A DNA stretch of 64,000 nt from Octopus vulgaris (Eukaryota), in assembly GCA_951406725.2 (NCBI GenBank), contig OX597836.1, positions 43,462,001 through 43,526,000 of the forward strand, in the 5' to 3' direction. Below the pieces are notes generated by a model, which did not search any database, had not been told where the DNA came from, and worked only from the letters and a program-made list of their open reading frames with translations. Shown here piece after piece: positions 3,320-44,324 of this stretch. Every line of letters starts with the position of its first letter. Position 1 is the stretch's first letter. Position numbers and translations under genes: made by a program.

Positions 3320-4610
<1,291 letters not shown>

Positions 4611-16352: not shown

Positions 16353-16639
16353 TCCTTCTTTCTTTCCTTTCCCGAGCGTCCAATAATACTATAATCGTTC
16401 CATGTCCACACGTTGTTGTGTTTTCTCTTTGTGTATTCATGTTTGGATTAACTATATATATATATACTAGCATTAAAGACCCGTCGTTGCTGGGTCATAG
16501 TGCTAGTGCATGTATATATGTGTACATATTACATGTACATCTATATATATATATATATACATCTACACATAAAATACAAAATACAAAGTTATATCTTGAT
16601 ATCGCTAGTGATAACAATACTCAAAATATATAACAGATT

Positions 16640-16953
16640 GGAATTGTTAGCCCGTCTCTTGTAATTTCGATCAATTGTATCTTGTCCTCCTCTTGTATAG
16701 AAGTGTGGCTACAATCCAGCCTACCTCTACTTCGGGTGGGGGGGTGCATTTAAAATTTTGGGCGGGGACATCCTACGTCCCTGATATAAAGGTAAAAATA
16801 AAATATTTCCACTTTGCAAGTTTGAGTCGAGTACTCCCTTGCACGCTCCGTTGACTTGAACCTTGCTTCTATTGTGGCGAATTTACCGCCTCTGATTAGA
16901 TACTTTTCATAGTCGCACCAAGACACTTTTTGAAGGTGCTTTCCTCCATGTTG
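16640..16953 (-). pseudogene. Decayed fourth ORF1 (ORF1-D), downstream part
   Basis: Fragments NMEESTFKKCLGA / YLIRGGKFATIEARF / PPEVEVGWIVATLL match ORF1-B EIEKCLGD..RGKKFGTVEVR..PPEVKTEWL. Confidence 0.75.
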
Positions 16954-17197
16954 TTTTATTATTACCCACAAGGGGCGAACACAGATGGGACAATACATTC
17001 TGATGATGGGGTCAGACAAACGAATGGGTTTTTACAATAAATCGGGTTTAAAAATTTTCATGAATAACAATAAATGGACAAAAATCGAGTGATAGGACAG
17101 ACCGGAAGACATTACGGGTGGAGTGGGTGCGGGTTTAGCTCGGACCCCACGAGCCCCGCCTCCCCACTGATACTTTTGGTTGCACTTGGTATTACAT

Positions 17198-20100
17198 TTA
17201 TGTTGTAACTTTCATTCGCAACTTCCGTGCTACATCCTTCCATCGTTCTTCATACGCTCTCCTAGTCAGGCATATTCTCTCCAGCCCTATCTTCCTTTTC
17301 AGGTGAAAGATGAAATAATTCATCAAACCAGGGCCGGAGATGAACTTGCCTGACTGTAAACCTTTCATTCTCGTCTTCCATATCACCTCTTTCGCGATTG
17401 CTACTACAACGAGAAAACGAAACTTACCTTCATTCACGAGGAAATCCGGTGGGTCAATTTTTGTAATCGACTCAGTCGACAGCTGTACTCTTCGTGTACC
17501 TGACAACAGGTGTTCGGCATAAACCCACACCTCAGACACGTCCGGACAATGAACAATCGCGTGCGGGACGGTTTCCCTATCCCGCCCGCATCTTGGACAT
17601 ATCGGACTGTCTTGGCCACCGTGCCTTGCGAGTTTATCCCGAACAGGTAGAGCTCCTCTGTAGCATTGCCATGCCAGAGACTTCTGGAAGTTGTCCAGTG
17701 TCCTTGGCTCGAACGTACGTCGGAACAGACTGGCCAGCTGATTATCGTCGAGACCTAGGGTTTCCCCCAAGGTATCTTCACATTCCGCCTCTACCAACCC
17801 TCTATAGAAGAAAGTGGTGGAACCCCCACCGCAGGCGTTGCCCGAGCGACGGAATAGCAGGAGAGCCTTGCGACACTCCGTGTACCAAGTACCAAGTTTC
17901 GATCTACGATTCAGCCAGGTTTCCCATCCACCGAAACTAGTGAACTTGGGAAACATCAGTTTTGCTAGCGAAGACCACACCCGTTCACCATCCAGGTAGA
18001 GCCACAGATGTCTTAACCTCAGCGCATGTCTGCGCATCATCAGCCAAGGCATCCCTAGCCCACCCTTTAACGGTTGTTGACAGCAAGTAGAGCGTTTCAC
18101 AAGTGGTTTCCCGCCCTTCCACAAGAAGTAGAAGAGCTGTCTTTCCAACTTGATCAACCACGAATCAGGGCAAGGAACGACGGAAAGGCGGTAGGTGATA
18201 ACCGATGCGATAAACACATTGGCCACCTCCGCCCTCCCTTTCAGGGATAGCCACCGCCAAGACCAGGTCTTGGCTACTGCAGCCACCTTGCTCGTTACCT
18301 CGCCCCAATTCTTCTCTATTTGGAGGTCTGGACCGAACCAGACCCCTAGCAGTTTAATCGGACCCTCCGTCCAACGTCCCACGACGCTGTCAGGAGGCAT
18401 CGACTTGCCTCTCCAGGTGCCGAGTTGCAAGCCGACTGACTTTTCGCGATTAACTTTTGCTCCTGTCACCGTCTCGTACACCTCTATGGCCTTGCCTACT
18501 TTACATAGGTGGTCCATTTCGGTTACGATGATGGTGATGTCATCCGCGTACGCTGACACTGATTTTCCATTACCTGGCTGTCTCGGGATGCCGCTCAGTT
18601 TTCGCAGTAATGGCTCAAGAGCCATCACGTACAAAAGCGGGGAGAGCGGACACCCTTGACGAACCGAGCGTTTGATTTTGAACGGCTTCGACAAGAAGCC
18701 GTTCACCCGAACTACCGAGTCGATGTTATCATAAATTTCGATAATCCACCTGAGGAATCCAAGGCTCAGCCCGAACTGTGCCAGGGCAGATACCAGGTAA
18801 CGATGGTCGACCCTATCAAAAGCTTTAGATTGGTCTAAATGGACCAGTGCCCCACCCTTGCCAGAATCACTATTAAACCCCTCTATAGTGTACCGCATTA
18901 GATGGAGATTATCCTGAATGGATCTGCCCGGAACGGCACATGTCTGTGCCCCTCCGATCAGACCATCCGCGACACGCGCCAATCTTTTCGATAACACTTT
19001 GGCCAAAATCTTCAACTCTGTGTTTAGCAGAGTGATGGGCCTGAAATTATCAATGCACTCCCCTTGCTCGGGTCCTTTCTGACGAGAGTCACTACTCCCC
19101 GGCGCACAGATCTGGGTATAAGCCCGTTCTGCTGCCAGTTCGCGTAGACCTCCGCCAGTAGGTGCCCGAACAAGTCTGGCATACTCTTATATAACTCATA
19201 GGGTAGACCATCCAAACCCGGCGCCTTGCCCGCGCCGCAGTCCGCCATTGCCTCAACCACCTCCTCAGGCGTGATTGGCCCTTCACAGCCCTCCGCATCT
19301 CGCCCCGATAAGCGCGGCAGACCGTCGAGTAGGTCCGTAAAGGCCCTCCTCCTATCCAGTCCGCCGCACTCACCGAAAAGCTGAGCGAAGTGCTCCTGAA
19401 AGGCCTCACACATCTCCTCGGGTTCGTTTATCAACTCACCTTGTTGGTTCGTCAAAGATCGAATCGTGGCATCGTTACCATGCTGAGCTTCCACCACTCG
19501 GGCCCATCTCACGGCGTTGATTCCTTCACATCCCATATGACGGATTCTAGCCCTGACAATGCAGCCCATGTGTTTGGCCTCGAGGTGCTGGTTTAACACC
19601 AGTCTCTTGGCCGCCACCTGAGCCGCAGAGCCAGTTTTCATGGCTTCCTCTAATTCCTTAACTAGAGTAGTTTCCCTTCTAGCCTCTCTAGCCACTACTC
19701 CTATGCTATATCTAATAGACTCAAACTTGATGGCTCGTTTGAGGGCGTACCACCATTTGTTATTAATGATGGTACCAGATAGTGCCCTCTGAATTATATT
19801 CCTAATCCGGTCTTTGTACTCCTTAATCGCCAAAAGGGACGTATTAAGTTTCCAGTAACCGGATCCTCTATTTTTAACCTTGTCAAGCTTACAAGTGACC
19901 ATTTTATGATCACTGTAGCTGATCGGGTAAAACTGTGGACACTTAGCTATTTTACTGTCTACTTTTCTAATTAGTATTCTATCTAGATACGACCTGGAAG
20001 ATCCGTCGCTGTTTGACCATGTCCACAATGGAGCGTTCGGAAATTCCAGCCTATAAGGATCTGCTAGCTCAAAGCGGCTTAGCAGTTCCATGAAGCCACT

Positions 20101-20586
20101 GTTGCCTTTTCTATCTGGACACGAGCCAACATAATCTACATCCGCTTTGCAAATTGTGTTAAAGTCTCCTAGCACCACTAATGAATGCGAAGTACCAAGA
20201 AAGTTTTCTAGTTCACGAAAATAATCACTTTGCCCTGTATGGTTGGGTGCGTAAATTGCAACCAGTCTGATAACTTTACCATTACTGAACGTCAAATCCA
20301 TGACGACCAGCCTACCTTCTGGATCTGCAAAAATTAACTTTTTCTCAGAAACCCGGTTTCTTTTTAATAGGACCAACACCCCACTCCCGCCTGTAGGACT
20401 GCCAGGAGAGAAAAAACTCTCGTAGCCGTCAAACAGCGGGAGTAGACCTCTTGGCCCCTCTAGCCGGGTTTCTGTAGCAACAATAACATCTAAATTACGC
20501 GACCTGATATCATGCAGGAAGCGACCTTGCTTCCAGCCTGCTCCCAGGCCGCGCACATTTAAACAACCAACATAAATGTAATCCAT
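17198..20586 (-). CDS. ORF2: APE endonuclease / reverse transcriptase / zinc finger (about 1129 aa if one frameshift is corrected)
   Basis: CLNVRGL, ETR, GDFN, SYLDRIL, SDHK (APE); LDQSKAFDRV, RQGCPLSP, YADD (RT); CPRC...HAIVHC. One 1-bp loss in a G run at ~19060-19063; restoring it reads KG-ECIDNFRPITLLNTELKILAK. Confidence 0.92.
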
Positions 20587-20595
20587 TACTTACCT

Positions 20596-21997
20596 TTATA
20601 TCAGTGGTTCGGTTTTTTCTTCTTCTTCCTTCTCTTTTTCTGGGCCTCGTGGGGGAGTCTGACGTAGGCCCTCGAATATATGTGGAGATGTTACATCCAA
20701 CCTAAGTGGGCCTACGTCATGGAAGAAATCTGACTTTATCCGCCCGTAATCCTTCCGGTCTATTTTGTAAATTGCAAAGTCATTTTTTTCTCTACTCTCT
20801 TCACATTGGCCATGGCTGCCAACACGTTTCCGAGTCTGCTATTTGATGCTTTTACGGCCATATATGAGTTTATTGACTCTTTTTTCTTTTTTAAAATTAC
20901 TCTGGGAGGGGTGGTTTCCGTTTTTCTTTTTTTTTTTCCGATAATTTTTGCCCACCCCTCCTCATTTATCTTTTCCTCGCTCTTTTTTTCTCCGCCGCTG
21001 GTTCTGCTGTTACCATCACCTCCACACCTTCAGTCTTCCCTTCTGGGCCGTCTGACGCTGCTTCTGGTGACACATTGTCTTCTTTTCCTTTTGGCTTAGG
21101 TGCTTCCTGCGGTTTGGGTTGGGGCTGGCATTCCGCCCTTACATGCCCCTTCTTACCGCAGCCGAAGCACCTCGGCTTTCTGCCCTCTACGAAGACTGTG
21201 ACTCTTTCATCTTCGCTTATCCTAAGAGTCTCTGGGATCTCTTCCAGGGTTTGTACTTCTGCTTGTATGGCTATTATTATCTTTTGCCCTTTCCAGAATT
21301 CTTCTTCTTCTACGGTGGCCTGGAGGATGTTTATTTTTTCCTCCAGGCCTACCATAACTGCTGCCACTAGGACTTCGGCATCCGCTTCTGGCGGGATGTT
21401 GTTCATAGTGATTTTGGAAGTTCTCTTGCCTTTATACAGGGGTAGGAGAACAATATCCTCTGCTTTTATGGGTTCCATGGATAGCTTCTTCGCTACCTCC
21501 TCTGACGTGAATCTCACCTCCACTGTGCCGTATTTCTTCCCTCGATTGATATACGTAATTTTGTCCATTATTGGCTTTAAGCAGTTTTCAATCTTTTTCT
21601 CCTCTATTTTTTGGATTGCTCTGTTTGTTATACTGAATGTCTTATAGATTATTCTCCTATTCGAAATATCCTCTTGTATTTTGGCGTTTGAAGCCACGGT
21701 TACTTCTGTGCCCTCTTTTGACACACAGTCTGCATGTTTTCCCAGGTTGTCCACGTTAATTTTTTTAATTTTCTTCCCAGCCACTTCAGCGAATTTTTTT
21801 GCTGGAGTTGATGCTGGTACTGGTTTTACCATTTTCTTGGGCGACGCCGCCTCTTTTTTCTTCGGCGACAGCGCCTCTTTTTTCCTTGGCGACAACGCCT
21901 CTTTTTTACTTGGCGACAATGCCTCTTTTTTACTTGGCGACAACGCCGGGTATTCATCCTCGCTCGTCACGGGCGAATAAGTGATGGGGGACTCCAT
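20596..21997 (-). CDS. ORF1-A: RRM-like + CCHC zinc-knuckle RNA-binding protein (about 467 aa after two homopolymer corrections)
   Basis: ATG at 21997 (MESPITY); VEGRKPRCFGCGKKGHVRAEC knuckle; frame resumes after A-run indels (~20985, ~20785) and ends ...KTEPLI* 9 nt before the ORF2 ATG. Confidence 0.85.
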
Positions 21998-22228
21998 TTT
22001 GAACAAATGGCTTTAACAAGCCTTTGGTAATCTAAATTGATTGTAGTTTTCCCCCACTGAGGGGGGAACACCAACGCGAAGTCTTCGCGCGAAGGTTGAC
22101 TTCGTCAGTTAGACAACAATGGACAAAAAAAGGTAGACCAACAGTATATAATAACAGAGATAAGTAGTATGAGAGCAAAAATATATATCAACTTACTACT
22201 AACGCAAAAAATTGATTTCCTCCAGGTG

Positions 22229-24011
22229 ATTTTATTACTACCCACAAGGGGCGAACATAGAGGGGACAATACAATCGGGGAACTTAAAATAAGAAAGCGA
22301 AATGACAAGAAGGGAAAAAATAAAAATAAAAATGACAAATGAAAGAATATTTACAATGAGATGCAAATGCCCACTCGATCCCCGGAATCGAGAGGTTACA
22401 TTTTCGTCACATATAGTTCACAATTTTTTTTTTCTTTTTTCTCTTCTTTCTTCTCTCTCCTCTCACAATCTCACACGTATTCCATAATACTTTTCAAGTC
22501 TCTAAAGTCAATCACTGAGCCCTCAGGCAGCCGCTCTTTCACTCGAACACCCGTGTAAAAAATTACACTCTCTCCAGCTGCTCTGAGGAACTCAGCGACT
22601 CTTTCTTCGGGGATCAGAGCAGTCTCCTGCCACTGATCAGTCATCCTGTTGACCCACACATGTCCCTCCATACTACATGTCAATTCCTTCATTTCGGGGC
22701 TGAAATGGAAGGTTATTAACTTGTAGTAATCTTGTTTCCGTCCTACGTTTTCTCTCGTTTTTCTTTTCGGGCTTACTTCTTCCTTGTTCTCCTCTCTTTG
22801 TTTCTCTCTTTCTCTCTTTTTGCCTTCTTTTCTTTCTTCTTCCTTCTCTTGTCTTTTTGGTTCTTTGTCTGTTCTCTCTTTCTCTCGTGTTTTATGTTCC
22901 TTTTCTTTTTCTTTTTGTGTGCCGTCTTTTCTTTTCGTTTGATTCTGTTCTCTCTCTTGTTTTTTTCCTGTTGTTTCTTTTTCCTTTTTCTTTTCCTGAC
23001 TCTGTTTTGGTTCTATTTCTTTCTTTTCTTTTATTTCTTTTTCCTTCGTTGACTTATTATTTCCTTTCTCTTGTTGTTTTGTCTCCTTTTCTATGTTTTC
23101 TTTTTCATTTACCGTATTCTTCTTTTCTTCAGTTTCCTTCTCATACTCCGCCATGAATTCATATAACGGGCACTCTTTTTTAATGTGCCCCCTTGTCCCG
23201 CACAAGTAGCAGTTTGGCTTTCTTCCCTCTACAATTACACTGAGGGTTTTCTCGTCTTCGATTTCTATTCTATAGGGGAACCTTTCAATGTCCTCTTTTG
23301 TGGCCATCAAACACAGTTCTACCCCATATCCTCTCCAATTTACTGCGTTGGACTCCTTAAAGGATTCCACCTCCACTTCCTCTTCTGCTGCTCCTAGAAT
23401 AGCTGTTGCCAGCCATTCTGTTTTTACTTCTGGGGGTATATTCGGGATTTTAACCCGGACCCCTCTTCTTCCCTTGTATGAGGGCCACATTATAAATGTT
23501 TCCGCTCTTAGAACAGTGGTAGCCAGTGAGGCTGCAATTTCTTCCGTTGCACATCTCACCTCCACCGTACCAAATTTTTTTCCTCTACTCACGTAGGTCG
23601 ATTTATCCATTATGTCTCCCAGACATTTTTCGATCTCTGCTATCTCCACTCTTGCCAGTTTCTTTGTACTTTTGTCCTGGGTTCTATACGTTACAGTTTT
23701 GTTTTCTTTGTCCTCTTTTGCTTTCGCGGGGGGATTAGCTTCACGCTATCACCCTCCCTTTTGAATAGTTTTTCATATTCCTTGAGTTTACTCTTCTCAA
23801 AGAAGACATCCTTCACGATTATTGCCGAATCATTATTATTCTTTCCCGTGACCCCCGCGTAAGTCGCCATGACTAGAGGGTCAATTCACCTTCTTCGGAA
23901 GGTTTCCAAACGTGGAGGCAAATGCCTCGCGCGATATTAATCACTTTACACAACAAAATTTCAACGTCTAATCACAGATAACAACACACGTGGGTAAATT
24001 TCCTCGATGTG
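22229..24011 (-). mobile_element. ORF1-only retroelement unit B1 (ORF 22471-23870)
   Basis: MATYAGVT...CYLCGTRGHIKKEC...; own 5' UTR; 3' tail TTGTCCCCTCTATGTTCGCCCCTTGTGGGTAGTAATAAAAT; no ORF2; frameshift in a G6 run at ~23730. Confidence 0.88.
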
Positions 24012-25790
24012 ATTTTATTACTACCCACAAGGGGCGAACATAGAGGGGACAATACAATCGGGGAACTTAAAATAAGAAAGCGAAATGACAAGAAGGGAAA
24101 AAATAAAAATAAAAATGACAAATGAAAGAATATTTACAATGAGATGCAAATGCCCACTCGATCCCCGGAATCGAGAGGTTACATTTTCGTCACATATAGT
24201 TCACAATTTTTTTTTTCTTTTTTCTCTTCTTTCTTCTCTCTCCTCTCACAATCTCACACGTATTCCATAATACCTTTCAAGTCTCTAAAGTCAATCACTG
24301 AGCCCTCAGGCAGCCGCTCTTTCACTCGAACACCCGTGTAAAAAATTACACTCTCTCCAGCTGCTCTGAGGAACTCAGCGACTCTTTCTTCGGGGATCAG
24401 AGCAGTCTCCTGCCACTGATCAGTCATCCTGTTGACCCACACATGTCCCTCCATACTACATGTCAATTCCTTCATTTCGGGGCTGAAATGGAAGGTTATT
24501 AACTTGTAGTAATCTTGTTTCCGTCCTACGTTTTCTCTCGTTTTTCTTTTCGGGCTTACTTCTTCCTTGTTCTCCTCTCTTTGTTTCTCTCTTTCTCTCT
24601 TTTTGCCTTCTTTTCTTTCTTCTTCCTTCTCTTGTCTTTTTGGTTCTTTGTCTGTTCTCTCTTTCTCTCGTGTTTTATGTTCCTTTTCTTTTTCTTTTTG
24701 TGTGCCGTCTTTTCTTTTCGTTTGGTTCTGTTCTCTCTCTTGTTTTTTTCCTGTTGTTTCTTTTTCCTTTTTCTTTTCCTGACTCTGTTTTGGTTCTATT
24801 TCTTTCTTTTCTTTTATTTCTTTTTCCTTCGTTGACTTATTATTTCCTTTCTCTTGTTGTTTTGTCTCCTTTTCTATGTTTTCTTTTTCATTTACCGTAT
24901 TCTTCTTTTCTTCAATTTCCTTCTCATACTCCGCCATGAATTCATATAACGGGCACTCTTTTTTAATGTGCCCCCTTGTCCCGCACAAGTAGCAGTTTGG
25001 CTTTCTTCCCTCTACAATTACACTGAGGGTTTTCTCGTCTTCGATTTCTATTCTATAGGGGAACCTTTCAATGTCCTCTTTTGTGGCCATCAAACACAGT
25101 TCTACCCCATATCCTCTCCAATTTACTGCGTTGGACTCCTTAAAGGATTCCACCTCCACTTCCTCTTCTGCTGCTCCTAGAATAGCTGTTGCCAGCCATT
25201 CTGTTTTTACTTCTGGGGGTATATTCGGGATTTTAACCCGGACCCCTCTTCTTCCCTTGTATGAGGGCCACATTATAAATGTTTCCGCTCTTAGAACAGT
25301 GGTAGCCAGTGAGGCTGCAATTTCTTCCGTTGCACATCTCACCTCCACCGTACCAAATTTTTTTCCTCTACTCACGTAGGTCGATTTATCCATTATGTCT
25401 CCCAGACATTTTTCGATCTCTGCTATCTCCACTCTTGCCAGTTTCTTTGTACTTTTGTCCTGGGTTCTATACGTTACAGTTTTGTTTTCTTTGTCCTCCT
25501 TTGCTTTCGCGGGGGGATTAGCTTCACGCTATCACCCTCCCTTTTGAATAGCTTTTCATATTCTTTGATTTTACTTTTCTCAAAGAAAACATCCTTCACG
25601 ATTATTGCCGAATCATTATTATTCTTTCCCGTGACCCCCGCGTAAGTCGCCATGACTAGAGGGTCAATTCACCTTCTTCTGAAGGTTTCCAAACGTGGAG
25701 GCAAACGCCTCGCGCGATATTAATCACTTTACACAACAAAATTTCAACTTCTAATCACAGATAACAACACTTGGAGATTTCCTCCATGTG
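24012..25790 (-). mobile_element. ORF1-only unit B2 (ORF 24254-25653)
   Basis: Near-identical tandem copy of B1. Confidence 0.88.
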
Positions 25791-27571
25791 ATTTTATTAC
25801 TACCCACAAGGGGCGAACATAGAGGGGACAATACAATCGGGGAACTTAAAATAAGAAAGCGAAATGACAAGAAGGGAAAAAATAAAAATAAAAATGACAA
25901 ATGAAAGAATATTTACAATGAGATGCAAATGCCCACTCGATCCCCGGAATCGAGAGGTTACATTTTCGTCACATATAGTTCACAATTTTTTTTTTCTTTT
26001 TTTCTTCTTTCTTCTCTCTCCTCTCACAATCTCACACGTATTCCATAATACTTTTCAAGTCTCTAAAGTCAATCACTGAGCCCTCAGGCAGCCGCTCTTT
26101 CACTCGAACACCCGTGTAAAAAATTACACTCTCTCCAGCTGCTCTGAGGAACTCAGCGACTCTTTCTTCGGGGATCAGAGCAGTCTCCTGCCACTGATCA
26201 GTCATCCTGTTGACCCACACATGTCCCTCCATACTACATGTCAATTCCTTCATTTCGGGGCTGAAATGGAAGGTTATTAACTTGTAGTAATCTTGTTTCC
26301 GTCCTACGTTTTCTCTCGTTTTTCTTTTCGGGCTTACTTCTTCCTTGTTCTCCTCTCTTTGTTTCTCTCTTTCTCTCTTTTTGCCTTCTTTTCTTTCTTC
26401 TTCCTTCTCTTGTCTTTTTGGTTCTTTGTCTGTTCTCTCTTTCTCTCGTGTTTTATGTTCCTTTTCTTTTTCTTTTTGTGTGCCGTCTTTTCTTTTCGTT
26501 TGATTCTGTTCTCTCTCTTGTTTTTTTCCTGTTGTTTCTTTTTCCTTTTTCTTTTCCTGACTCTGTTTTGGTTCTATTTCTTTCTTTTCTTTTATTTCTT
26601 TTTCCTTCGTTGACTTATTATTTCCTTTCTCTTGTTGTTTTGTCTCCTTTTCTATGTTTTCTTTTTCATTTACCGTATTCTTCTTTTCTTCAATTTCCTT
26701 CTCATACTCCGCCATGAATTCATATAACGGGCACTCTTTTTTAATGTGCCCCCTTGTCCCGCACAAGTAGCAGTTTGGCTTTCTTCCCTCTACAATTACA
26801 CTGAGGGTTTTCTCGTCTTCGATTTCTATTCTATAGGGGAACCTTTCAATGTCCTCTTTTGTGGCCATCAAACACAGTTCTACCCCATATCCTCTCCAAT
26901 TTACTGCGTTGGACTCCTTAAAGGATTCCACCTCCACTTCCTCTTCTGCTGCTCCTAGAATAGCTGTTGCCAGCCATTCTGTTTTTACTTCTGGGGGTAT
27001 ATTCGGGATTTTAACCCGGACCCCTCTTCTTCCCTTGTATGAGGGCCACATTATAAATGTTTCCGCTCTTAGAACAGTGGTAGCCAGTGAGGCTGCAATT
27101 TCTTCCGTTGCACATCTCACCTCCACCGTACCAAATTTTTTCCTCTACTCACGTAGGTCGATTTATCCATTATGTCTCCCAGACATTTTTCGATCTCTGC
27201 TATCTCCACTCTTGCCAGTTTCTTTGTACTTTTGTCCTGGGTTCTATACGTTACAGTTTTGTTTTCCTTGTCCTCCTTTGCTTTCACGGGGGGGATTAGC
27301 TTCACGCTATCACCCTCCCTTTTGAATAGCTTTTCATATTCTTTGATTTTGCTTTTCTCAAAGAAAACATCCTTCACGATTATTGCTGAATCATTATTAT
27401 TCTTTCCCGTGACCCCCGCGTAAGTCGCCATGACTAGAGGGTCAATTCACCTTCTTCTGAAGGTTTCCAAACGTGGAGGCAAACGCCTCGCGCGATATTA
27501 ATCACTTTACACAACAAAATTTCAACTGTCTAATCACAGATAACAACACGCAAATAGATTTCCTCCAGGTG
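25791..27571 (-). mobile_element. ORF1-only unit B3 (ORF 26032-27431)
   Basis: Near-identical copy. Its G7 run keeps the N-terminus in frame; it has a frameshift in a T run at ~27135 instead. Confidence 0.88.
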
Positions 27572-29345
27572 ATTTTATTACTACCCACAAGGGGCGAACA
27601 TAGAGGGGACAATACAATCGGGGAACTTAAAATAAGAAAGCGAAATGACAAGAAGGGAAAAAATAAAAATAAAAATGACAAATGAAAGAATATTTACAAT
27701 GAGATGCAAATGCCCACTCGATCCCCGGAATCGAGAGGTTACATTTTCGTCACATATAGTTCACAATTTTTTTTTCTTTTTTCTCTTCTTTCTTCTCTCT
27801 CCTCTCACAATCTCACACGTATTCCATAATACCTTTTCAAGTCTCTAAAGTCAATCACTGAGCCCTCAGGCAGCCGCTCTTTCACTCGAACACCCGTGTA
27901 AAAAATTACACTCTCTCCAGCTGCTCTGAGGAACTCAGCGACTCTTTCTTCGGGGATCAGAGCAGTCTCCTGCCACTGATCAGTCATCCTGTTGACCCAC
28001 ACATGTCCCTCCGTACTACATGTCAATTCCTTCATTTCGGGGCTGAAATGGAAGGTTATTAACTTGTAGTAATCTTGTTTCCGTCCTACGTTTTCTCTCG
28101 TTTTTCTTTTCGGGCTTACTTCTTCCTTGTTCTCCTCTCTTTGTTTCTCTCTTTCTCTCTTTTTGCCTTCTTTTCTTTCTCCTTCCTTCTCTTGTCTTTT
28201 TGGTTCTTTGTCTGTTCTCTCTTTCGTGTTTTATGTTCCTTTTCTTTTTCCTTTTGTGTGCCGTCTTTTCTTTTCGTTTGATTCTGATCTCTCTCTTGTT
28301 TTTTTCCTGTTGTTTCTTTTTCCTTTTTCTTTTCCTGACTCTGTTTTGGTTCTATTTCTTTCTTTTCTTTTATTTCTTTTTCCTTCGTTGACTTATTATT
28401 TCCTTTCTCTTGTTGTTTTGTTTCCTTTTCTATGTTTTCTTTTTCATTTACCGTATTCTTCTTTCGAGTTCCTGCTCGCACTCCGCTACGAATTCGTATA
28501 ACGGGCACTCTTTTTTAATGTGCCCCCTTGTCCCGCACAAGTAGCAGTTTGGCTTTCTTCCCTCTACAATTACACTGAGGGTTTTCTCGTCTTCGATTTC
28601 TATTCTATAGGGGAACCTTTCAATGTCCTCTTTTGTGGCCATCAAACACAGTTCTACCCCATATCCTCTCCAATTTACTGCGTTGGACTCCTTAAAGGAT
28701 TCCACCTCCACTTCCTCTTCTGCTGCTCCTAGAATAGCTGTTGCCAGCCATTCTGTTTTTACTTCTGGGGGTATATTCGGGATTTTAACCCGGACCCCTC
28801 TTCTTCCCTTGTATGAGGGCCACATTATAAATGTTTCCGCTCTTAGAACAGTGGTAGCCAGTGAGGCTGCAATTTCTTCCGTTGCACATCTCACCTCCAC
28901 CGTACCAAATTTTTTTCCTCTACTCACGTAGGTCGATTTATCCATTATGTCTCCCAGACATTTTTCGATCTCTGCTATCTCCACTCTTGCCAGTTTCTTT
29001 GTACTTTTATCCTGGGTTCTATACGTTACAGTTTTGTTTTCTTTGTCCTCTTTTGCTTTCGCGGGGGGATTAGCTTCACGCTATCACCCTCCCTTTTGAA
29101 TAGTTTTCATATTCTTTGAGTTTACTCTTCTCAAAGAAAACATCCTTCACGATTATTGCCGAATCATTATTATTCTTTCCCGTGACCCCCGCGTAAGTCG
29201 CCATGACTAGAGGGTCAATTCACCTTCTTCGGAAGGTTTCCAAACGTGGAGGCAAATGCCTCGCGCGATATTAATCACTTTACACAACAAAATTTCAACG
29301 TCTAATCACAGATAACAACACACGTGGGTAAATTTCCTCCATGTG
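27572..29345 (-). mobile_element. ORF1-only unit B4 (ORF 27813-29204, several indels)
   Basis: Copy of B with a locally divergent patch at ~28460-28500 and small indels. Confidence 0.86.
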
Positions 29346-31078
29346 ATTTCTTTATTACCCACTAAGGGGCTACGAAGAATGGCGGACATAACAAAACATG
29401 GGGACATAGAACATTATAATTAAACTTTATGAAAATGAATTGTTAAACGAAAAAAATGATAAAATGAAAGCGATACCAACGGCCCCGTCCGTCAGCATCA
29501 CTTACCTGTCCTTTGTTTTTCATAGTCACTTGAATGTTCTTTGTCAATACGAATAAATTCCATATCCATTCTTACTCCGAAATACTCATCCATATTTTCC
29601 ACGAATTCATCGCTCATTCTTATATCTTTCACCTCCCAATTCTCCCTTTCACACCTCCCCATAAACTCACCTATGTTCTTCTTTTCAATCACAGCATACC
29701 TAGTCTCTCCAACATCATACCATTTATACTCTTCCATTAGACTTTTAACTTCTTTCTGTTCAGTCATAGTACAAATGTACGGCCTGGGTTCGATTTCAAT
29801 CTCTTGTGTGTGTGTATTCTTTTTTTTCTTTTGTTTTCTTGTTGGGGGGGAGCGGGTGGGTTCAATGTCTGCATGGATAGGGTGGGACTCAGAGGGTGTG
29901 GGTGGTTTTGGGGTAGATTGGAGTTCCATATTATTTTCTTTTTTTCCACGTATTCTTCTCTTCCTCTTACTTCCAGCTTCCTTCCATTTCTGTGTATTCT
30001 CTTCCTCTGTTTCCTTCTCCTCTGGTTTCTGCTTCTCTCTCTCTGGTTCGGAATCCATTTCTTTCCCTGGGGGAGGGCAGAAGGCTCTTATGTGACCCCT
30101 CAGGCCACACTTGTAACAACGTGGAGCCCTGCCCTCCACCCACACTCTCATGATCACGTCTCCCAGTCTGATGCTTTCCGTCAGGTCCACCAGTACCTCG
30201 GTCTCTGCCTGTACGTTCAGCTCCACCGTTACGCCTCTCCAGCCCTCGGACTTAACCGAGGCATGGAGAATATCCACTTCGTCCTCGTGGCCGCTGATCA
30301 CAGCCGCCACAATCCATTCTGCCTCCACGTTTGGTGGCACTCCCTCCACCCTTATTCGTGTAATCCTCCTGTTTAAATACGTAGGTAATAGGGTTACCTT
30401 TTCTGACTTCACCGCCTTCGCCGCCATCTTCCTCGCTGCAGACTCAGTTTTGAAATGCACAACTACGGTACCGTACTTGGATCCTCGAGTCAGAAAATTT
30501 ATTTCCTCCTCAGTTCTTCGCAGGGCCTCCTCTATCCATTCCATGGTTACAACTTCTACCCTCTTCCTTTCGTTTGCGAACACCCTGTAAATAATGGTCC
30601 TCTTATCATACCATTCCTTTCTCCTGGGTGTCGGTGATAGTTCCACCTCACCGCTTTCCTTTTTCATGTATTTCTGGTAACTTGGCAACTTGGCCATGTC
30701 TACCCCTTTCTCTTCCGCCTTCTTGGTTACACCGGCATAGGTATAACCCAGCTTCTCTTCCAAATTCCTTGCTGCCATTTCTAGCTCTTTCTCAGACGTA
30801 GGCAGGTCTGATAAAGACTCGAAAATTCCAGCCTTTTCTTCCATCAGCTTCATTGCAATTGCCTGTTCCAGTTCCTCATCTGTCGTGGACAAGTCTGTTA
30901 GAGACTCATAGTCCATTTCCTTCTGTCTGACAGACCGAGAACGGCCGCCAAAATAGAAAAAGTGTAACGCGCTGAACGAGCGAAACGCGAAACCGCATCA
31001 ACGCCGTTCAGAACCTCCACAACAACAACAACGCTTCTTGTTCTTTTTTACCGAATTTCAGGAGCCGAAAAAAAACGT
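29346..31078 (-). mobile_element. ORF1-only unit C1
   Basis: Own 5' UTR; 3' tail GCCCCTTAGTGGGTAATAAAGAAAT; no ORF2. Confidence 0.88.
29498..30916 (-). CDS. ORF1-C (472 aa, intact): RRM-like + CCHC knuckle
   Basis: TYAGVTKK, RGSKYGTVVVHF, LLPTY..R, VPPNV, VEGRAPRCYKCGLRGHIRAFC; motif order collinear with ORF1-A and ORF1-B. Confidence 0.9.
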   Translation of the reverse strand: MDYESLTDLSTTDEELEQAIAMKLMEEKAGIFESLSDLPTSEKELEMAARNLEEKLGYTYAGVTKKAEEKGVDMAKLPSYQKYMKKESGEVELSPTPRRKEWYDKRTIIYRVFANERKRVEVVTMEWIEEALRRTEEEINFLTRGSKYGTVVVHFKTESAARKMAAKAVKSEKVTLLPTYLNRRITRIRVEGVPPNVEAEWIVAAVISGHEDEVDILHASVKSEGWRGVTVELNVQAETEVLVDLTESIRLGDVIMRVWVEGRAPRCYKCGLRGHIRAFCPPPGKEMDSEPEREKQKPEEKETEEENTQKWKEAGSKRKRRIRGKKENNMELQSTPKPPTPSESHPIHADIEPTRSPPTRKQKKKKNTHTQEIEIEPRPYICTMTEQKEVKSLMEEYKWYDVGETRYAVIEKKNIGEFMGRCERENWEVKDIRMSDEFVENMDEYFGVRMDMEFIRIDKEHSSDYEKQRTGK

Positions 31079-32831
31079 ATTTCTTTATTACCCACTAAGG
31101 GGCTACGAAGAGTGCCGGACATCACAAAACATGGGGACATAGAACATTATAATTAAACTATATGAACATGAAGTGTTAAACGAAAAAAATGATAAAATGA
31201 AAGCGATACCAACGGCCCCGTCCGTCAGCATCACTTACCTGTCCTTTGTTTTTCATAGTCACTTGAATGTTCTTTGCCAATACGAATAAATTCCATATCC
31301 ATTCTTACTCCGAAATACTCATTCATATTTTCCACGAATTCATCGCTCATTCTTATATCTTTCACCTCCCAATTCTCCCTTTCACACCTCCCCATAAACT
31401 CACCTATGTTCTTTTTTTCAATCACAGCATACCTAGTCTCTCCAACATCATACCGTTTATACTCTTCCATTAGACTTTTAACTTCCCTCTGTTCAGTCAT
31501 AGTACAAATGTACGGCCTGGGTTCGATTTCAATCTCTTGTGTGTGTGTATTCTTTTTTTCTTTTGTTTTCTTGTTGGGGGGAGCGGGTGGGTTCAATGTC
31601 TGCATGGATAGGGTGGGACTCAGAGGGTGTGGGAGGTTTTGGGGTAGATTGGAGTTCCATATTATTTTCTTTTTTTCCACATATTCTTCTCTTCCTCTTA
31701 CTTCCAGCTTCCTTCCATTTCTGTGTATTCTCTTCCTCTGTTTCCTTCTCCTCTGGTTTCTGCTTCTCTCTCTCTGGTTCGGGATCCATTTCTTTCCCTG
31801 GGGGAGGGCAGAAGGCTCTTATGTGACCCCTCAGGCCACACTTGTAACAACGTGGAGCCCTGCCCTCCACCCACACTCTCATGATCACTTCTCCCAGTCT
31901 GATGCTTTCCGTCAGGTCCACCAGTACCTCGGTCTCTGCCTGTACGTTCAGCTCCACTGTTATGCCTCTCCAGCCCTCGGACTTAACCGAGGCATGGAGA
32001 ATATCCACTTCGTCCTCGTGGCCGCTGATCACAGCCGCCACAATCCATTCTGCCTCCACGTTTGGTGGCACTCCCTCCACCCTTATTCGTGTAATCCTCC
32101 TGTTTAAATACGTAGGTAACAGTGTTACCTTTTCCGACTTCACTGCCTTCGCTGCCATCTTCCTCGCTGCAGATTCACTTTTAAAGTGCACAACTACGGT
32201 CCCGTACTTGGATCCTCGAGTCAGAAAATTTATTTCCTCCTCAGTTCTTCGCAGGGCTTCCTCTATCCATTCCATGGATACAACTTCTACCCTCTTCCTT
32301 TCGTTTGCGCACACCCTGTAAACAATGGTCCTCTTATCATACCATTCTTTTCTCCTGGGTGTCGGTGATAGTTCCACCTCACCGCTTTCCTTTTTCATGT
32401 ATTTCTGGTAACTTGGCAACTTGGCCATGTCGACCCCTTTCTCTTCCGCCTTCTTGGTTACACCGGCATAGGTATAACTCAGCTTGTCTTCCAATTTCCT
32501 TGCTGCCATTTCTAGCTCCTTCTCAGACGTAGGCAAGTCTGATAAAGACTCGAAAACTCCAGCCTTTTCCTCCATCAGCTTCACTGCAATTGCCTGTTCC
32601 AGTTCCTCATCCGTCGTGGACAAGTCTGTTAGAGACTCATAGTCCATTTCCTTCTGTCTGACAGACCGAAAACGGCCGCCAAAACAGAAAAAGTGTAACG
32701 CGCTGAACGAGCGAAACGCGAAACCGCGTCAACGCCGTTCAGAATTTCCACAACAACAACAACGCTTTTTGTTCTTTTTTACCGAATTTTCAGGAGCCGA
32801 GAAAAAAAAACACGGAGCCGAAAAAAAAACG
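31079..32831 (-). mobile_element. ORF1-only unit C2 (ORF 31231-32647, one frameshift near 31570)
   Basis: Diverged copy of C1; its 5' end has a duplicated GTTTTTTTTTC(TC)GGCTCC motif. Confidence 0.88.
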
Positions 32832-32880
32832 ACCTTTTTTCTCTACATTGTATACTTTATAGACAATAGTCTTTTCTTTA
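32832..32880 (-). pseudogene. Decayed ORF1-D, upstream part
   Basis: EKTIVYKVYNVEKKG resembles ORF1-C KRTIIYRVFANERK and ORF1-B NKTVTYRTQDKSTKK, which lie just upstream of the KCLG motif found across the array. Confidence 0.55.
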
Positions 32881-34189
32881 ATTTAATTTTTTATTATCCA
32901 TCTGGACTATTCCATTTCTGCATGCTAATTTTATTTTTAATTTATTCCCATTCATGTGAAACCACTTATTCAAGTTCAAATCATTGATGCAATTTTATAC
33001 CAATTGCTATTTTTACTTTTGTCATGTTACTTTAGTTTGATTTTAATTATTACTTACTACATATAATTCAATTGTTATTATTATTTTTATTGTTAAAGTG
33101 AAAGTATCTGACATAAAATAGGGAAACGTTTTTGTTTCACTTTTAACACGTAATGCTGAAATAGTGGAGAAGATATGATATTGCTATGGACTCGCTCTAG
33201 GCCAGAAGTTGAAAATTTTTTGTTGCCCATGAAACTACATGTGTAAAATTTGAATGAAATTGGTTGTGTAGTTCTCAAGTTTTAGGCAAACACACAGACA
33301 GACAGACACACATTCTCAGTTTTATATATATAAAGATATATCATCATCATTTAACATCCGTTTTCCGTGCTAGCACGGGTTGGATGGTTCAACTGGGGTC
33401 TGGGAAGCCAGGAGGCTGCACCAGGCTCCAGTCTGATCTGGCAGTGGCCACGATCAGTTGGTGCTTTTTACGTGCCACCGGCACAGAAGCCAGTCAAGGC
33501 GGTGCTGGCATCAGCCATGTTCGGATGGTGCTTTTTACATGTCGCCGGCACAGGTATCACAACTACAATTTCCTTTTAATATTTATTTTGATGTTGATGT
33601 ACTTGACTCAATAGGTCTCCTCAAGCACAGCAGGTCGCCCTATGATCCAAGGTAAACACAGCAGGTCGTTCTGCAATCCAAGGTACTTCGGATGGGCTGG
33701 GGCTATGCGAAACTGGTGCAGGAAGCAGCCATGAACTCACATTATTTGTCGGGTCTTTGCAGTCACAGCATATCTCCAGAGATCTCGGTCTTTCGTCATT
33801 GCCTCTGTGAGGCCTAACGTTCAAAGGTCATGCTTGACTACCTCATCCCATGTCTTCCTGGGTCTACCTCTCCTCCGGATACCTTCAACTGTTTGGGAGT
33901 GGCACTTCTTCACACATCTCTCCTTATCCATCTGCAGTACATATGTGTGTGTGTGTGTGGATATGCAATGGCCCAGTGGTTAGGGCAGTGGACTTGCAGT
34001 CATAGGATCGTGGTTTCGATTCCCAGACCGGGCGTTGTGAGTGTTTATTGAGTGAAAACACCTAAAAGCTCCAAAAAGCTCCAGCAGGGGGTGGTGGTGA
34101 TCCCTGCTGTACTTTTTCACCACAACCTTCTCTCACTCTTTCTTCTGATGGTTTGGTTGGTCATGTGATATATATATATATATATATAT

Positions 34190-38421: not shown

Positions 38422-41400
38422 CTTAACCCCTTAGCATTCAAACCAGCTATATCTCACCCAAGTGGAGGTGCAATGGCCCAGTGGTTAGGACAGCGGACTC
38501 GTGGTCATAGGATCGCGGTTTCAATTCCCAGACCGGGCGTTGTGAGTGTTTATTGAGCGAAAACACCTAAAAAGCTCCACGAGGCTCCGGCAGGGGATGG
38601 TGGTGATCCCTGCTGTACTCTTTCACCACAACTTTCTTTCACTCTTTCTTCCTGTTTCTGTTGTACCTGTATTTTCAAAGGGCCGGCCTTGTCACTCTCT
38701 GTGTCACGCTGAATATCCCCGAGAACTGCGTTAAGGGTACACGTGTCTGTGGAGTGCTCAGCCACTTACACGTTAATTTCACGGATCAACCGGAACCCTC
38801 GTCGTTGTAACTGACGGAGTGCTTCCATCCATCCATCTCACCCAAATATTCTACCTGCATTATGTTCAAATTGATCTGATCAGGCCTTTCCCACCTACCC
38901 TATGGTTGGTTGTTCCTTCTCGACCCATGCCTGGCTCATAAGGGCCGGTTTCCCGGTTTCCTTGGAGTATAGGTTCCCCACCTGGATGGGACACCGGTCC
39001 GTCGCAGGTGAGCTGCAAGATGCAGGAGGAAAGAGTGAGAGAAAGTTGTGGCGAAAGATTCAGCAGAAGTTTCGCCATTACCTTCTGCCAGAGCCGCGTG
39101 GAGCTTAGGTGCTTCGCTCATAAACACACACATCGGCCGGTCTGAGATTTGAACTCGCGATCCCTCGACCGCGAGTCCGCTGCTCTAACCACTAGGCCAT
39201 GTGCCTCCACCCACCTACCCTATGATATCATTCTAAAAGTAACCAATCACTTCATTAAAATCTCAAAGCTACAAGATAATGCAAGATTGGTTCAGAGCAA
39301 TGTTAATTAATAAATAAGGATTACGTTGAGGTTCTGAGAGATAATGGTGTCATTGAGAACCAAAGGTGTCAAGTAATGCTGAATAAGTGCTATAGACAGA
39401 CCATAGTTAAGTTCCAGATTCAGTAATATTGCAAATAAAGGGCTCAACGTTGGTTCTATGTCAGCGTGTGTATATATGAATTTAAGGATAATAAGGATTA
39501 CACTTGACAAAATAAGGATAAATAAGGATTACATTTGACAAAATAAGGATAAATAAGGATTACATTTGACAAAATAAGGATAAATAAGGATTACATTTGA
39601 CGAAATAAGGATAAATAAGGAATACTTTTGACACAATAAGGATTACATTTGACAAAATAAGGATAAATAAGGAATACTTTTGACACAATAAGGATTACTT
39701 TTGACAAAATAAGGATAAATAAGGAATACTTTTGACACAATAAGGATTACATTTGACAAAATAAGGATAAATAAGGATTACTTTTGACAAAATAAGGATT
39801 AGATTTGACAAAATAAGGATTACATTTGACAAAATAAGGATGACAAATAAGGATAAATAAGGATTACATTTGACAAAATAAGGATAATAAAGATTACATT
39901 TGACAAAACAAGGATAAATAAGGATTATATTTGACAAAATAAGGACAAATAAGGATTACTTTTGACAAAATAAGGATAAAGAAGGATTACTTTTGACAAA
40001 ATAAGGATAAATAAGGATTACATTTGACAAAATAAGGATAATAAAGATTACATTTGACAAAATAAGGATGACAAAATAAGGATTACATTTGACAAAATAA
40101 GGATAAATAAGGATTACTTTTGACAAAATAAGGATAAATAAGGATTACTTTTGACAAAATAAGGATAAATAAGGAATACTTTTGACACAATAAGGATTAC
40201 TTTTGACAAAATAAGGATAAATAAGGAATACTTTTGACACAATAAGGATTACTTTTGACAAAATAAGGATAAATAAGGATTACTTTTGACAAAATAAGGA
40301 TTAGATTTGACAAAATAAGGATTACATTTGACAAAATAAGGATGACAAATAAGGATAAATAAGGAATACTTTTGACACAATAAGGATTACTTTTGACAAA
40401 ATAAGGATAAATAAGGAATACTTTTGACACAATAAGGATTACTTTTGACAAAATAAGGATAAATAAGGATTACTTTTGACAAAATAAGGATTAGATTTGA
40501 CAAAATAAGGATTACATTTGACAAAATAAGGATGACAAATAAGGATAAATAAGGATTACATTTGACAAAATAAGGATAATAAAGATTACATTTGACAAAA
40601 TAAGGATAAATAAGGATTATATTTGACAAAATAAGGATAAATAAGGATTACTTTTGACAAAATAAGGATAAAGAAGGATTACTTTTGACAAAATAAGGAT
40701 AAATAAGGATTACATTTGACAAAATAAGGATAATAAAGATTACATTTGACAAAATAAGGATGACAAAATAAGGATTACATTTGACAAAATAAGGATAAAT
40801 AAGGATTACTTTTGACAAAATAAGGATAAATAAGGATTACTTTTGACAAAATAAGGATAAATAAGGATTACTTTTGACTAAATAAGGATTACTTTTGACA
40901 AAATAAGGATAAATAAGGATTACATTTGACAAAATAAGGATAAATAAGGATTACTTTTGACAAAATAAGGATTACTTTTGACAAAATAAGGATTACATTT
41001 GACAAAATAAAGATGACAAAATAAGGATAATAAAGATTACATTTGACAAAATAAGGATGACAAAACAAGGATAAATAAGGATTACATTTGACAAAATAAG
41101 GATAAATAAGGATTACATTTGACAAAATAAGGATTAGATTTGACAAAATAAGGATAATAAAGATTACATTTGACAAAATAAGTATGACAAAATAAGGATT
41201 ACATTTGACAAAATAAGGATTACATTTGACAAAATAAAGATTAGATTTGACAAAATAAGGATAAATAAGTTTTACATTTGACAAAATAAGGATAAATAAG
41301 GATTACATTTGACAAAATAAGGATTAGATTTGACAAAATAAGGATAATAAAGATTACATTTGACAAAATAAGGATGACAAAATAAGGATTACATTTGACA

Positions 41401-44324
41401 AAATAAGGATTACATTTGACAAAATAAAGATTACATTTGACAAAATAAGGATAAATAAGTTTTACATTTGACAAAATAAGGATAAATAAGGATTACATTT
41501 GACAAAATAAGGATTAGATTTGACAAAATAAGGATAAATAAGTTTTACATTTGACAAAATAAGGATAATAAAGATTACATTTGACAAAATAAGGATTAGA
41601 TTTGACAAAATAAGGATAATAAAGATTACATTTGACAAAATAAGAATGACAAAATAAGGATTACATTTGACAAAATAAGGATAAATAAGGATCACTTTTG
41701 ACAAAATAAGGATAAATAAGTTTTACATTTGACAAAATAAGGATAAATAAGGATTACTTTTGACAAAATAAGGATAAATAAGTATTACATTTGACAAAAT
41801 AAGGATAAATAAGGATTACTTTTGACAAAATAAGGATAAATGAGGATTACTTTTGACAAAATAAGGATAAATAAGGATTACTTTTTACAAAATAAGGATA
41901 AATAAGGATTACTTTTGACAAAATAAGGATAAATAAGGATTACTTTTGACAAAATAAGGATAAATAAGGATTACTTTTGACAAAATAAGGATAAATAAGG
42001 ATTACATTTGACAAAATAAGGATAAATAAGGATTACATTTGACAAAATAAGGATAAATAAGGATTACTTTTGACAAAATAAGGATAAATAAGGATTACAT
42101 TTGACAAAATAAAGATTAGATTTGACAAAATAAGGATAAATAAATTTTACATTTGACAAATTAAGGATTAGAATTGACAAAATAAGGATAAATAAGGATT
42201 ACATTTGACAAAATAAGGATAATAGAGATTACATTTGACAAAATAATGATGACAAAATAAGGATTACATTTGACAAAATAAGGATGACAAATAAGGATAA
42301 ATAAGGATTACTTTTGACAAAATAAGGATAAATAAGGATCACTTTTGACAAAATAAGGATAAATAAGGATTACATTTGACAAAATAAAGATTAGATTTGA
42401 CAAAATAAGGATGACAAAATAAGGATTACATTTGACAAAATAAGGATGACAAATAAGGATAAATAAGGATTACTTTTGACAAAATAAGGATAAATAAGGA
42501 TTACTTTTGACAAAATAAGGATAAATAAGGATTACATTTGACAAAATAAAGATTACATTTGACAAAATAAGGATAAATAAGTTTTACATTTGACAAAATA
42601 AGGATAAATAAGGATTACATTTGACAAAATAAGGATAAATAAGGATTACTTTTGACAAAATAAGGATAAATAAGGATTACTTTTGACAAAATAAGGATAA
42701 ATAAGGATTACTTTTGACAAAATAAGGATCAATAAGGATTACTTTTGACAAAATAAGGATTAGATTTGACAAAATAAGGATAAATAAGGATTACATATGA
42801 CAAAATAAGGATTACTTTTGACAAAATAAGGATAAATAAGGATTACATTTGACAAAATAAGGATGACAAAATAAGGATTACATTTGACAAAATAAGGATG
42901 ACAAATAAGGATAAATAAGGATTACTTTTGACTAAATAAGGATCACTTTTGACAAAATAAGGATAAATAAGGATTACATTTGACAAAATAAAGATTAGAT
43001 TTGACAAAATAAGGATTACATTTGACAAAATAAGGATAAATAAGGATTACATTTGACAAAATAAGGATAAATAAAGATTACATTTGACAAAATAAGGATG
43101 ACAAAATAAGGATTACATTTGACAAAATAAGGATGACAAATAAGGATAAATAAGGATTACTTTTGACAAAATAAGGATAAATAAGGATCACTTTTGACAA
43201 AATAAGGATAAATAAGGATTACATTTGACAAAATAAAGATTAGATTTGACAAAATAAGGATTACATTTGACAAAATAAGGATAAATAAGGATTACATTTG
43301 ACAAAATAAGGATAAATAAGGATTACTTTTGACAAAATAAGGATAAATAAGGATTACTTTTGACAAAATAAGGATAAATAAGGATTACTTTTGACAAAAT
43401 AAGGATCAATAAGGATTACTTTTGACAAAATAAGGATTAGATTTGACAAAATAAGGATAAATAAGGATTACTTATGACAAAATAAGGATTACATTTGACA
43501 AAATAAAGATTAGATTTGACAAAATAAGGATTACATTTGACAAAATAAGGATAAATAAGGATTACATTTGACAAAATAAGGATAAATAAAGATTACATTT
43601 GACAAAATAAGGATGACAAAATAAGGATTACATTTGACAAAATAAGGATGACAAATAAGGATAAATAAGGATTACTTTTGACAAAATAAGGATAAATAAG
43701 GATCACTTTTGACAAAATAAGGATAAATAAGGATTACATTTGACAAAATAAAGATTAGATTTGACAAAATAAGGATTACATTTGACAAAATAAGGATAAA
43801 TAAGGATTACATTTGACAAAATAAGGATTACTTTTGACAAAATAAGGATAAATAAGGATTACTTTTGACAAAATAAGGATAAATAAGGATTACTTTTGAC
43901 AAAATAAGGATCAATAAGGATTACTTTTGACAAAATAAGGATTAGATTTGACAAAATAAGGATAAATAAGGATTACTTATGACAAAATAAGGATTACTTT
44001 TGACAAAATAAGGATAAATAAGGATTAGATTTGACAAAATAAGGATAAATAAGGATTACATTTGACAAAATAAGGATAAATAAGGATTACTTTTGACAAA
44101 ATAAGGATAAATAAGGATTACTTTTGACAAAATAAGGATAAATAAGGATTACATTTGACAAAATAAGGATGACAAATAAGGATAAATAAGGATTACTTTT
44201 GACAAAATAAGGATTAGATTTGACAAAATAAGGATTACATTTGACAAAATAAGGATTACTTTTGACAAAATAAAAATAAATAAGGATTACTTTTGACAAA
44301 ATAATCTGAATGCTGAACAGTTAA
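38422..44324. mobile_element. TTAA MITE host containing two nested SINEs and the 4.8-kb satellite
   Basis: Ends TTAACCCCTTAGCATTCA and TGAATGCTGAACAGTTAA; SINEs at 38462-38834 (TSD ATCTCACCCAA) and 38905-39211 (TSD CCACCTACCCTATG). Confidence 0.65.
39482..44303. repeat. Satellite of 31-bp (TTTGACAAAATAAGGATAAATAAGGATTACW) and 21-bp variants
   Basis: Directly visible; higher-order duplication of ~692 bp (39695 vs 40387). Confidence 0.98.

Follow-up and report, generated by a model that had tools for sequence, protein, structure and literature searches.

Recurrent insertion of a Tx1-like LINE and its ORF1-only satellites at one nucleotide of an octopus Helitron, likely guided by position

Why a head-to-tail array of long interspersed elements (LINEs) should lie inside a decayed ORF1 of its own superfamily is the question raised by a 64,000-nucleotide stretch of the Octopus vulgaris genome (assembly GCA_951406725.2, contig OX597836.1, positions 43,462,001 to 43,526,000, forward strand), referred to below as the window. 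The array runs on the minus strand from 32834 to 16952 and comprises seven head-to-tail units, C1, C2, B1–B4, and A, of which A (5.26 kb) is a full-length LINE and the units B (1.78 kb) and C (1.75 kb) carry ORF1 only. The original prediction, made from the sequence alone, took an older ORF1 fragment, possibly captured by a Helitron, to be the target site and concluded that these elements target members of their own kin. The reading considered probable here is that A, together with its satellites B and C, goes again and again into a single nucleotide of a dispersed Helitron, likely selected by its position approximately 85 nt past an upstream landmark and not by recognition of the relic. The target nucleotide likely lies just after a transcription start, and the relic is probably a passenger at a hotspot that is set by position.

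Both flanking peptides were found where the original prediction had placed them, and they are the halves of one decayed L1/Tx1-type ORF1, here called D, which lies inside a non-autonomous Helitron and whose frame is continuous in Helitron copies without an array (empty copies). The array flanks make up a single 1.02-kb Helitron (window 33336–16467, minus strand), whose 5' half (32835..33336, short variant) starts A|TC and whose 3' part (16467..16645) holds a hairpin at 16478–16496 and ends CTAG|T at 16467. The same 3' end is present in 9 of 9 empty copies and the 5' end A|TC in the window copy and at loci L003, L004, L007, L009, L010, L018, and L019, so that the ends are those of a Helitron, with 5' TC, 3' CTRR, location between A and T, and no target-site duplication (TSD) of its own; the subterminal GC-rich hairpin has a z of −5.0 in L009 and −2.1 in the window copy. 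The 5' piece of the relic (32835..32897, minus strand) begins at the junction of a 560-bp deletion, reads EKTIVYKVYNVEKK at 32876–32835, and contains the TATA-like TATAAAG, while the 3' piece (16646..16951, minus strand; MEESTF...RDG), with several frameshifts, ends at a sequence termed T3. The target itself, termed T1, is seen in its 3' copy as ACATGGAGGAAA at 16940..16951 on the same strand.

The assignment of these halves to ORF1 holds against profiles. A position-specific scoring matrix built from 152 aligned ORF1 stretches gave the 5' peptide 24.7 bits, a score that none of 2000 shuffles and none of 9016 background 15-mers attained; in HMMER alone the peptide is weak (2.1 bits with the A/B/C profile and −3.1 with a larger one), with a collinear alignment over profile positions 2–15, and the 3' flank scores 13–32 bits in two frames. 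Uninterrupted copies exist as well: among 19 other loci with the 3' flank, which come from the best 40 of 1554 candidates, nine are empty and have the upstream sequence seen in the window, and the remaining 10 have an A or C tail joined at that very base. In the empty loci L010 and L017, the frame crosses the site to KCLG without a gap against the profile (positions 2–36, 18–20 bits). The Y-to-KCLG spacing, given in the original prediction as ~18 versus 19 amino acids in ORF1-B, is in empty copies identical to that in A and B, ~9 nt being missing from the window at the 5' junction of C1. The G that ends EKKG and the N that begins NMEE stem from the inserted elements, and empty copies read EKKRFEHMEE.

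A search with the nearest database ORF1 brought up a longer, 1.6-kb Helitron variant with 560 more bases, which include the D 5' untranslated region (UTR) and N-terminus and are open or nearly open to the break at RDG; the window variant is a deletion derivative of it. Two free LINEs with both ORF1 and ORF2, D0 and D1, are 75% and 68% identical to D in DNA, and the D protein is 74–75% identical to that of D0 and 30–36% to those of A, its sister family A2, B, and C; judged by these identities, ORF1-D belongs with the D0 family and not with A/B/C. A pattern for the uncut continuation of ORF1, used to look for the direct donor, gave four matches, all of D0 type and none closer than ~75%. The view that a fragment of an older ORF1 from this superfamily, borne by a Helitron, is split by the array, and that the site is used recurrently, stands. 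D may have been captured by the Helitron or may be an old insertion that lost its 3' part; the latter would be favoured a little, because the D break adjoins T3, a sequence nicked by the clade, and the relic may date from a former visit by that clade. D0 itself is site-preferring, three of four D0 3' ends having a common flank, and at L197–L202 (e.g. G000:C12:46320001-46330000) D0/D1 are inserted ~33 nt after the TATA box of a TG..CA, CCAAT-bearing element resembling a long terminal repeat (LTR).

Insertion at T1 is recurrent throughout the genome. Among the 30 best A 3' ends, from 40 scored of 518 candidates, 22 adjoin T1, four adjoin another unit, and four lie elsewhere, which exceeds the share of >20% of flanks in one repeat that marks a target-specific Tx1 family in the relevant part of PMC4494074. 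All 30 A 5' ends are preceded by a 12–13 nt target copy, seven of them directly on the Helitron, and for B and C alike 29 of 30 5' ends are preceded by the Helitron or by the tail of another unit. Genome-wide counts with exact patterns gave at least 108 filled and at least 516 empty T1 junctions, and reversed patterns gave none. The insertions are independent, because A tails are far more alike (99.4% identity) than their Helitron flanks (93.5%, one short flank excluded), although the former figure is inflated by the picking of tails as best matches, a point that counts against the reading adopted here. Within arrays the units are mostly heterogeneous, their closest counterparts often being on other contigs, and the six arrays fetched, with up to 22 B + A, all lie between two Helitron halves, usually in the order C, B, A (exceptions: L027, L259, L289, and L305).

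Several observations accompany these arrays. The largest, at G000:C7:100.087-100.132 Mb (L166–L170), places 22 B and one A (~44 kb) in one 1-kb Helitron, and its junction variants change step by step in the 5' direction, as if recording the order of insertion. Off-target A copies occur in tandem repeats at L296 (G000:C30:1.29 Mb) and L295 (G000:C13:58.26 Mb), the repeat of the latter having a ATGCAAAT octamer in each unit. In runs X15 and X16, labelled as other organisms, contigs join the empty site, and X15 also joins the shortest Helitron variant, and likewise an A tail with T3. Each of these is one contig whose label is uncertain, and they amount to a hint only.

At the junctions, the earlier statement that there is no clear TSD applies to C alone, since A and B carry a duplication of 12–13 bp, which is seen at five internal array junctions and on both sides of solo copies. 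In the window, 5' target copies lie at 29333–29344 in B1 (27572..29345), 27559–27570 in B2 (25791..27571), 25778–25789 in B3 (24012..25790), 23999–24010 in B4 (22229..24011), and 22216–22227 in A (16952..22228; ORF1 ATG 21997, ORF2 ATG 20586), all on the minus strand. The duplication is real because a 5'-truncated A has a target copy on both sides, and it had been missed because C joins ~9 nt upstream, deleting ~9 nt of target in 7 of 7 Helitron junctions, as at the 5' end of C1 (31079..32834, minus strand; ORF1-only, one frameshift); C2 (29346..31078, minus strand; ORF1-only) has a 472-amino-acid open frame from ATG 30916, and later C copies use weaker sites further upstream. The 5' and 3' target copies differ in five of 10 solo elements (L073/L030, L075/L046, L121, L188, and L332) and agree in the others (L055, L072, L191, L314, and L329), with identical variants recurring across different contigs. 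Leaders that begin with TTGAAC or GAAC, 4–6 nt before the nick, also occur at foreign targets (L275, L276, L289, and L305).

What singles out this nucleotide is likely its position, because T1 was not found filled in long Helitrons and T3 is used at the same distance in a shorter variant. The candidate landmark is the upstream motif AAATGGAATAGTCC (32904..32917, minus strand), whose core AATGGAAT stands 83–86 nt before the nick at T1 in most filled copies. When T1 sites are split by their downstream sequence, assuming only two variants, ~44% of the newer sites (~100 filled vs 125 empty) and ~2% of the older ones (8 vs ~391) are filled. The filled older (CCAT-type) sites are in short Helitrons in eight of eight cases and in long ones in none, 18 of 20 sampled empty ACCTGG sites (from the first 21 on contig C1, one newer-type site omitted) are long Helitrons, and none of the 36 entries of filled 5' junctions in hand, one of which is array-internal, lies in a long Helitron. 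Apart from the length of an A-run and 1–2 bases, long and short copies agree over a stretch that begins ~70 nt before the nick and ends 45 nt past it. An extra-short Helitron variant (empty copy L187) is without T1, and here subfamilies 83–92% identical to A insert at T3, where the sequence is another one but the distance from the upstream Helitron DNA is unchanged: T3 is 85 nt from AATGGAAT in five of seven cases, and 72 and 8 nt in further deletions. All five T3 insertions seen at both ends are in deletion variants, though every Helitron copy has the T3 sequence. One old C-like element in a long Helitron lies ~97 nt from the motif and not at T1. Furthermore, an unrelated repeat, T2, harbours arrays of A2 and of some A copies, and in it a motif identical at 13 of 14 positions stands 83 nt upstream of the insertion point. 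The distance from the landmark is thus constant across differing local sequences, with exceptions in deletion copies.

T2 (L229–L249, L254–L257, L275, L276, L280, L281, L285, and L302) is a dispersed repeat in which A2, A, B, and C form arrays. Its conserved block, promoter-like in character, includes a GGAATATTCC palindrome, an octamer-like TTGCATG, and TATTTAAA; the repeat further contains a possible splice donor and, nested within it, an element of Mariner-like type. The Helitron family also shows many more microhomology deletions around the hotspot (L319, L329, L083, L332, L317, and L147), which form a series suited to mapping the landmark.

Other explanations have to be weighed against position. 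Plain sequence specificity as in Tx1L, in which the endonuclease would read T1 with its close context, subfamilies would read T3 or T2, and the relic would be a true target by chance or descent, accords with the single-nucleotide precision at T1 and the 12–13 bp TSDs, with ACATGG in 88 of 100 listed filled versus 18 of 100 listed empty sites, with the diverged nature of the T3 users, and with the ascription of Tx1 target choice mainly to the endonuclease in the part of PMC4494074 drawn on here. It is nevertheless regarded as unlikely, given that the same ACCTGG is filled in short Helitrons and not found filled in long ones, that rare deletion variants hold all five T3 insertions seen at both ends although every long and short copy has T3, and that T1, T3, and T2 have little in common beyond AC|A. 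The targeting of the family's own relatives, akin to the self-nesting of Zepp, is improbable as a rule, even though the main site is inside a true ORF1 homologue and the relic may be an older insertion of the clade, with a 5' UTR and a 3' break adjoining T3. Long Helitrons, where the same ORF1-D is better preserved, were never found filled at T1; five free D0/D1 ORF1s from an intact-protein search (L141, L154, L155, L157, and L199) are uninterrupted at the homologous site; the ORF1 bodies of A, B, and C contain none of the 30 A 3' ends; and neither T2 nor T3 is an ORF1 interior. Least credible of all is hitchhiking, whereby one insertion would have been amplified by the Helitron and arrays would have grown by unequal crossing-over: a near-identical B block in the C7 array (9/231 pairs identical) and the junction variants common along an array suit it, but the identity of elements well above that of flanks, the mixing of units of 94% and 98% haplotypes within arrays, and the presence at one and the same nucleotide of solo copies of A, B, and C as well as truncated ones refute it as the main cause; it may account for part of the longest arrays.

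Positional choice is itself opposed by several findings besides the inflated tail identity. The landmark motif was chosen post hoc and the tethering factor is only putative; distances of 59, 72, 79, and 8 nt also occur in deletion copies; and C nicks several weaker upstream sites. TGGAAT is found upstream of only four of eight non-Helitron A-lineage targets (background 5.4%) and upstream of neither the D0 nor the D1 targets. Long copies have a longer A-run and mostly ACC for ACA, and sequence alone could lower their use. A TATA-like hexamer is absent in four filled copies (L057/L329, L083, L319, and L332), on which account a strict rule of TATA plus 36 nt was rejected; TATA-like sequences at 33–41 nt in T2, L250, D0, and D1, against a background of 4.5%, were noted post hoc and serve as a clade-level hint only.

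If the choice is positional, the following course of events may be envisaged. ORF2 of A would mobilise B and C in trans, a DNA-bound host factor would tether the ribonucleoprotein (RNP), and the endonuclease would nick the best AC|A-like site nearby. A staggered cut would regenerate the site on the 5' side, so that arrays would grow mostly 5'-ward, and C, by usually destroying the site, would tend to cap them. Transcripts starting a few nucleotides upstream of the nick would yield RNA with a target-like leader, which may anneal to the 5' target copy and often overwrite it. In the Helitron, the 560-bp deletion may have brought ORF1-D codons under the landmark. A bolder version, tentative and rather doubtful as a whole, is that the clade is the RNA polymerase II (Pol II) counterpart of TRE5-A: the RNP would dock on promoter-bound factors and insert a few bases after transcription starts borne by repeats (the Helitron, the LTR-like element, and T2), with a borrowed promoter, an RNA leader that rebuilds the target, a swarm of ORF1-only satellites, and a Helitron promoter made by the deletion that joined TATA-like codons of a dead ORF1 to an upstream element.

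The proteins bear on the affiliation of the clade. A ORF2, with one frameshift, contains the Pfam domains Exo_endo_phos (3.8e-14), RVT_1 (8e-31), and zf-RVT (7e-9), that is, an N-terminal apurinic/apyrimidinic endonuclease (APE), a reverse transcriptase (RT), and a C-terminal zinc finger, and its best solved relative is human L1 ORF2 (1.4e-31; R2, 8.5e-20). None of the 120 matches listed for A is named Tx1; the clade is presumably Tx1-like, a label taken from the architecture. A ORF1 comprises two predicted RRM-like domains and a CCHC motif; the predicted domain model has a pLDDT of 95, with tandem-RRM proteins as top Foldseek matches, weak at TM 0.3–0.5, and zf-CCHC exceeds the cut-off in B only, being weak in A and C. 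Over the matched part, ORF1-A is 99% identical to an annotated Octopus sinensis protein, and the elements, 99–100% identical, are probably active.

B and C have ORF1 and no ORF2, and share with A a GCCCC..GGGTAATAA type of 3' tail, AT-rich in A, the B tail being 88–90% identical to that of A over 61–64 nt. Since their ORF1s are only 36–38% identical to that of A over the conserved domain and form separate branches, B and C are not recent internal-deletion derivatives of A, an origin that was considered and ruled out. The same arrays hold units with other ORF1s or with 70–83% identity to B/C (L267, L273, L298, L315–L319, and L334), so that the swarm of satellites extends beyond B and C. In young copies of A, B, and C, the frameshifts are located in homopolymers (window ~19123, runs in B and C; L314:3595, 4554), and many of them are likely assembly errors, because at two places in L314 the contigs of all four runs show another homopolymer length.

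Elsewhere in the window, dispersed and partly tandem short interspersed elements (SINEs) at 48150–48360 (plus strand) and 53339–53500 (minus strand) have a 3' tail like the clade tails, closest to D0 and C; in an incidental sample, 0 of 27 such SINEs were at T1, T2, or T3, a weak negative given that the tail resembles that of D0. Long low-complexity and minisatellite tracts at 3217–4780, 40000–44000, and 49300–51100 give rise to spurious six-frame open reading frames.

Among known systems, Tx1 families that target DNA transposons or LTR elements, with tandem copies around the TSD, come closest; those covered by the parts of PMC4494074 and PMC6719617 used here are Tx1L in the piggyBac Tx1D, crocodilian Tx1-Mar and SINEU-3 in Mariner-N4_AMi, Tx1-9_AMi in Harbingers, and Tx1-8_Crp in LTR elements. 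As with these, an APE-RT LINE strongly prefers one place in another transposable element (TE), tandem insertions sandwich the TSD, and non-autonomous partners use the same target. Unlike them, as far as that coverage goes, the octopus target is a Helitron and the choice follows distance in a natural deletion series, and the partners encode very divergent ORF1s of their own, in arrays reaching 22 B + A per Helitron. The part of PMC5391098 at hand describes Dictyostelium TRE5-A, which inserts at a fixed spacing from a transcription complex bound to DNA, ~47 bp upstream of Pol III tRNA genes, and whose ORF1 binds TBP in vitro, and TRE5-A.2, an ORF1-only derivative mobilised in trans. The octopus system resembles this pair, so described, as an APE-type LINE at a set distance from a landmark, with tandems and ORF1-only partners, and differs in that the landmark, in a Helitron and other repeats, looks Pol II-like and the tether is putative. 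HeT-A forms head-to-tail arrays. With HAL1 and Ag-Sponge, it is listed among ORF1-only non-autonomous LINEs in the relevant section of PMC5786205. B and C share with the LINEs of that section an ORF1 without ORF2 and a 3' tail in common with an autonomous LINE, and depart from them in the divergence of their ORF1s from that of A and in arrays that are internal and not telomeric. In Zepp of Chlorella and Coccomyxa, copies nest in each other (PMC3446292, in the part used); clusters of related LINEs at few loci are a common trait, whereas the octopus units are arranged one after another at an external site that is regenerated, at 100 or more dispersed loci, and the empty ORF1 bodies and long Helitrons noted above do not fit self-nesting. 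A 2026 repeat annotation of O. vulgaris reports 13 recently active L1-Tx1 families, and its main text has no occurrence of 'target', 'nested', or 'ORF1', while its supplements may hold the families as consensus sequences (PMC13282606). In full-text literature searches, judged by titles and the openings of abstracts and not extending to Repbase/Dfam or subscription papers, no paper on a Helitron-targeting LINE or on this system came up.

Relative to TE-targeting Tx1 elements, a Helitron target with site choice that follows distance is likely new, the tether being putative. The gain or switch of targets by APE-type LINEs is usually credited to the endonuclease. Here three natural Helitron lengths set the effect of position apart from that of local sequence, and a single genome offers hundreds of sites that can be scored. 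For the design of retrotransposon insertion tools, a compact LINE whose full-length 5' ends are joined precisely at a landmark that can be moved would also be of interest. In the octopus genome, Helitrons act as dispersed safe havens, gathering arrays of up to ~45 kb.

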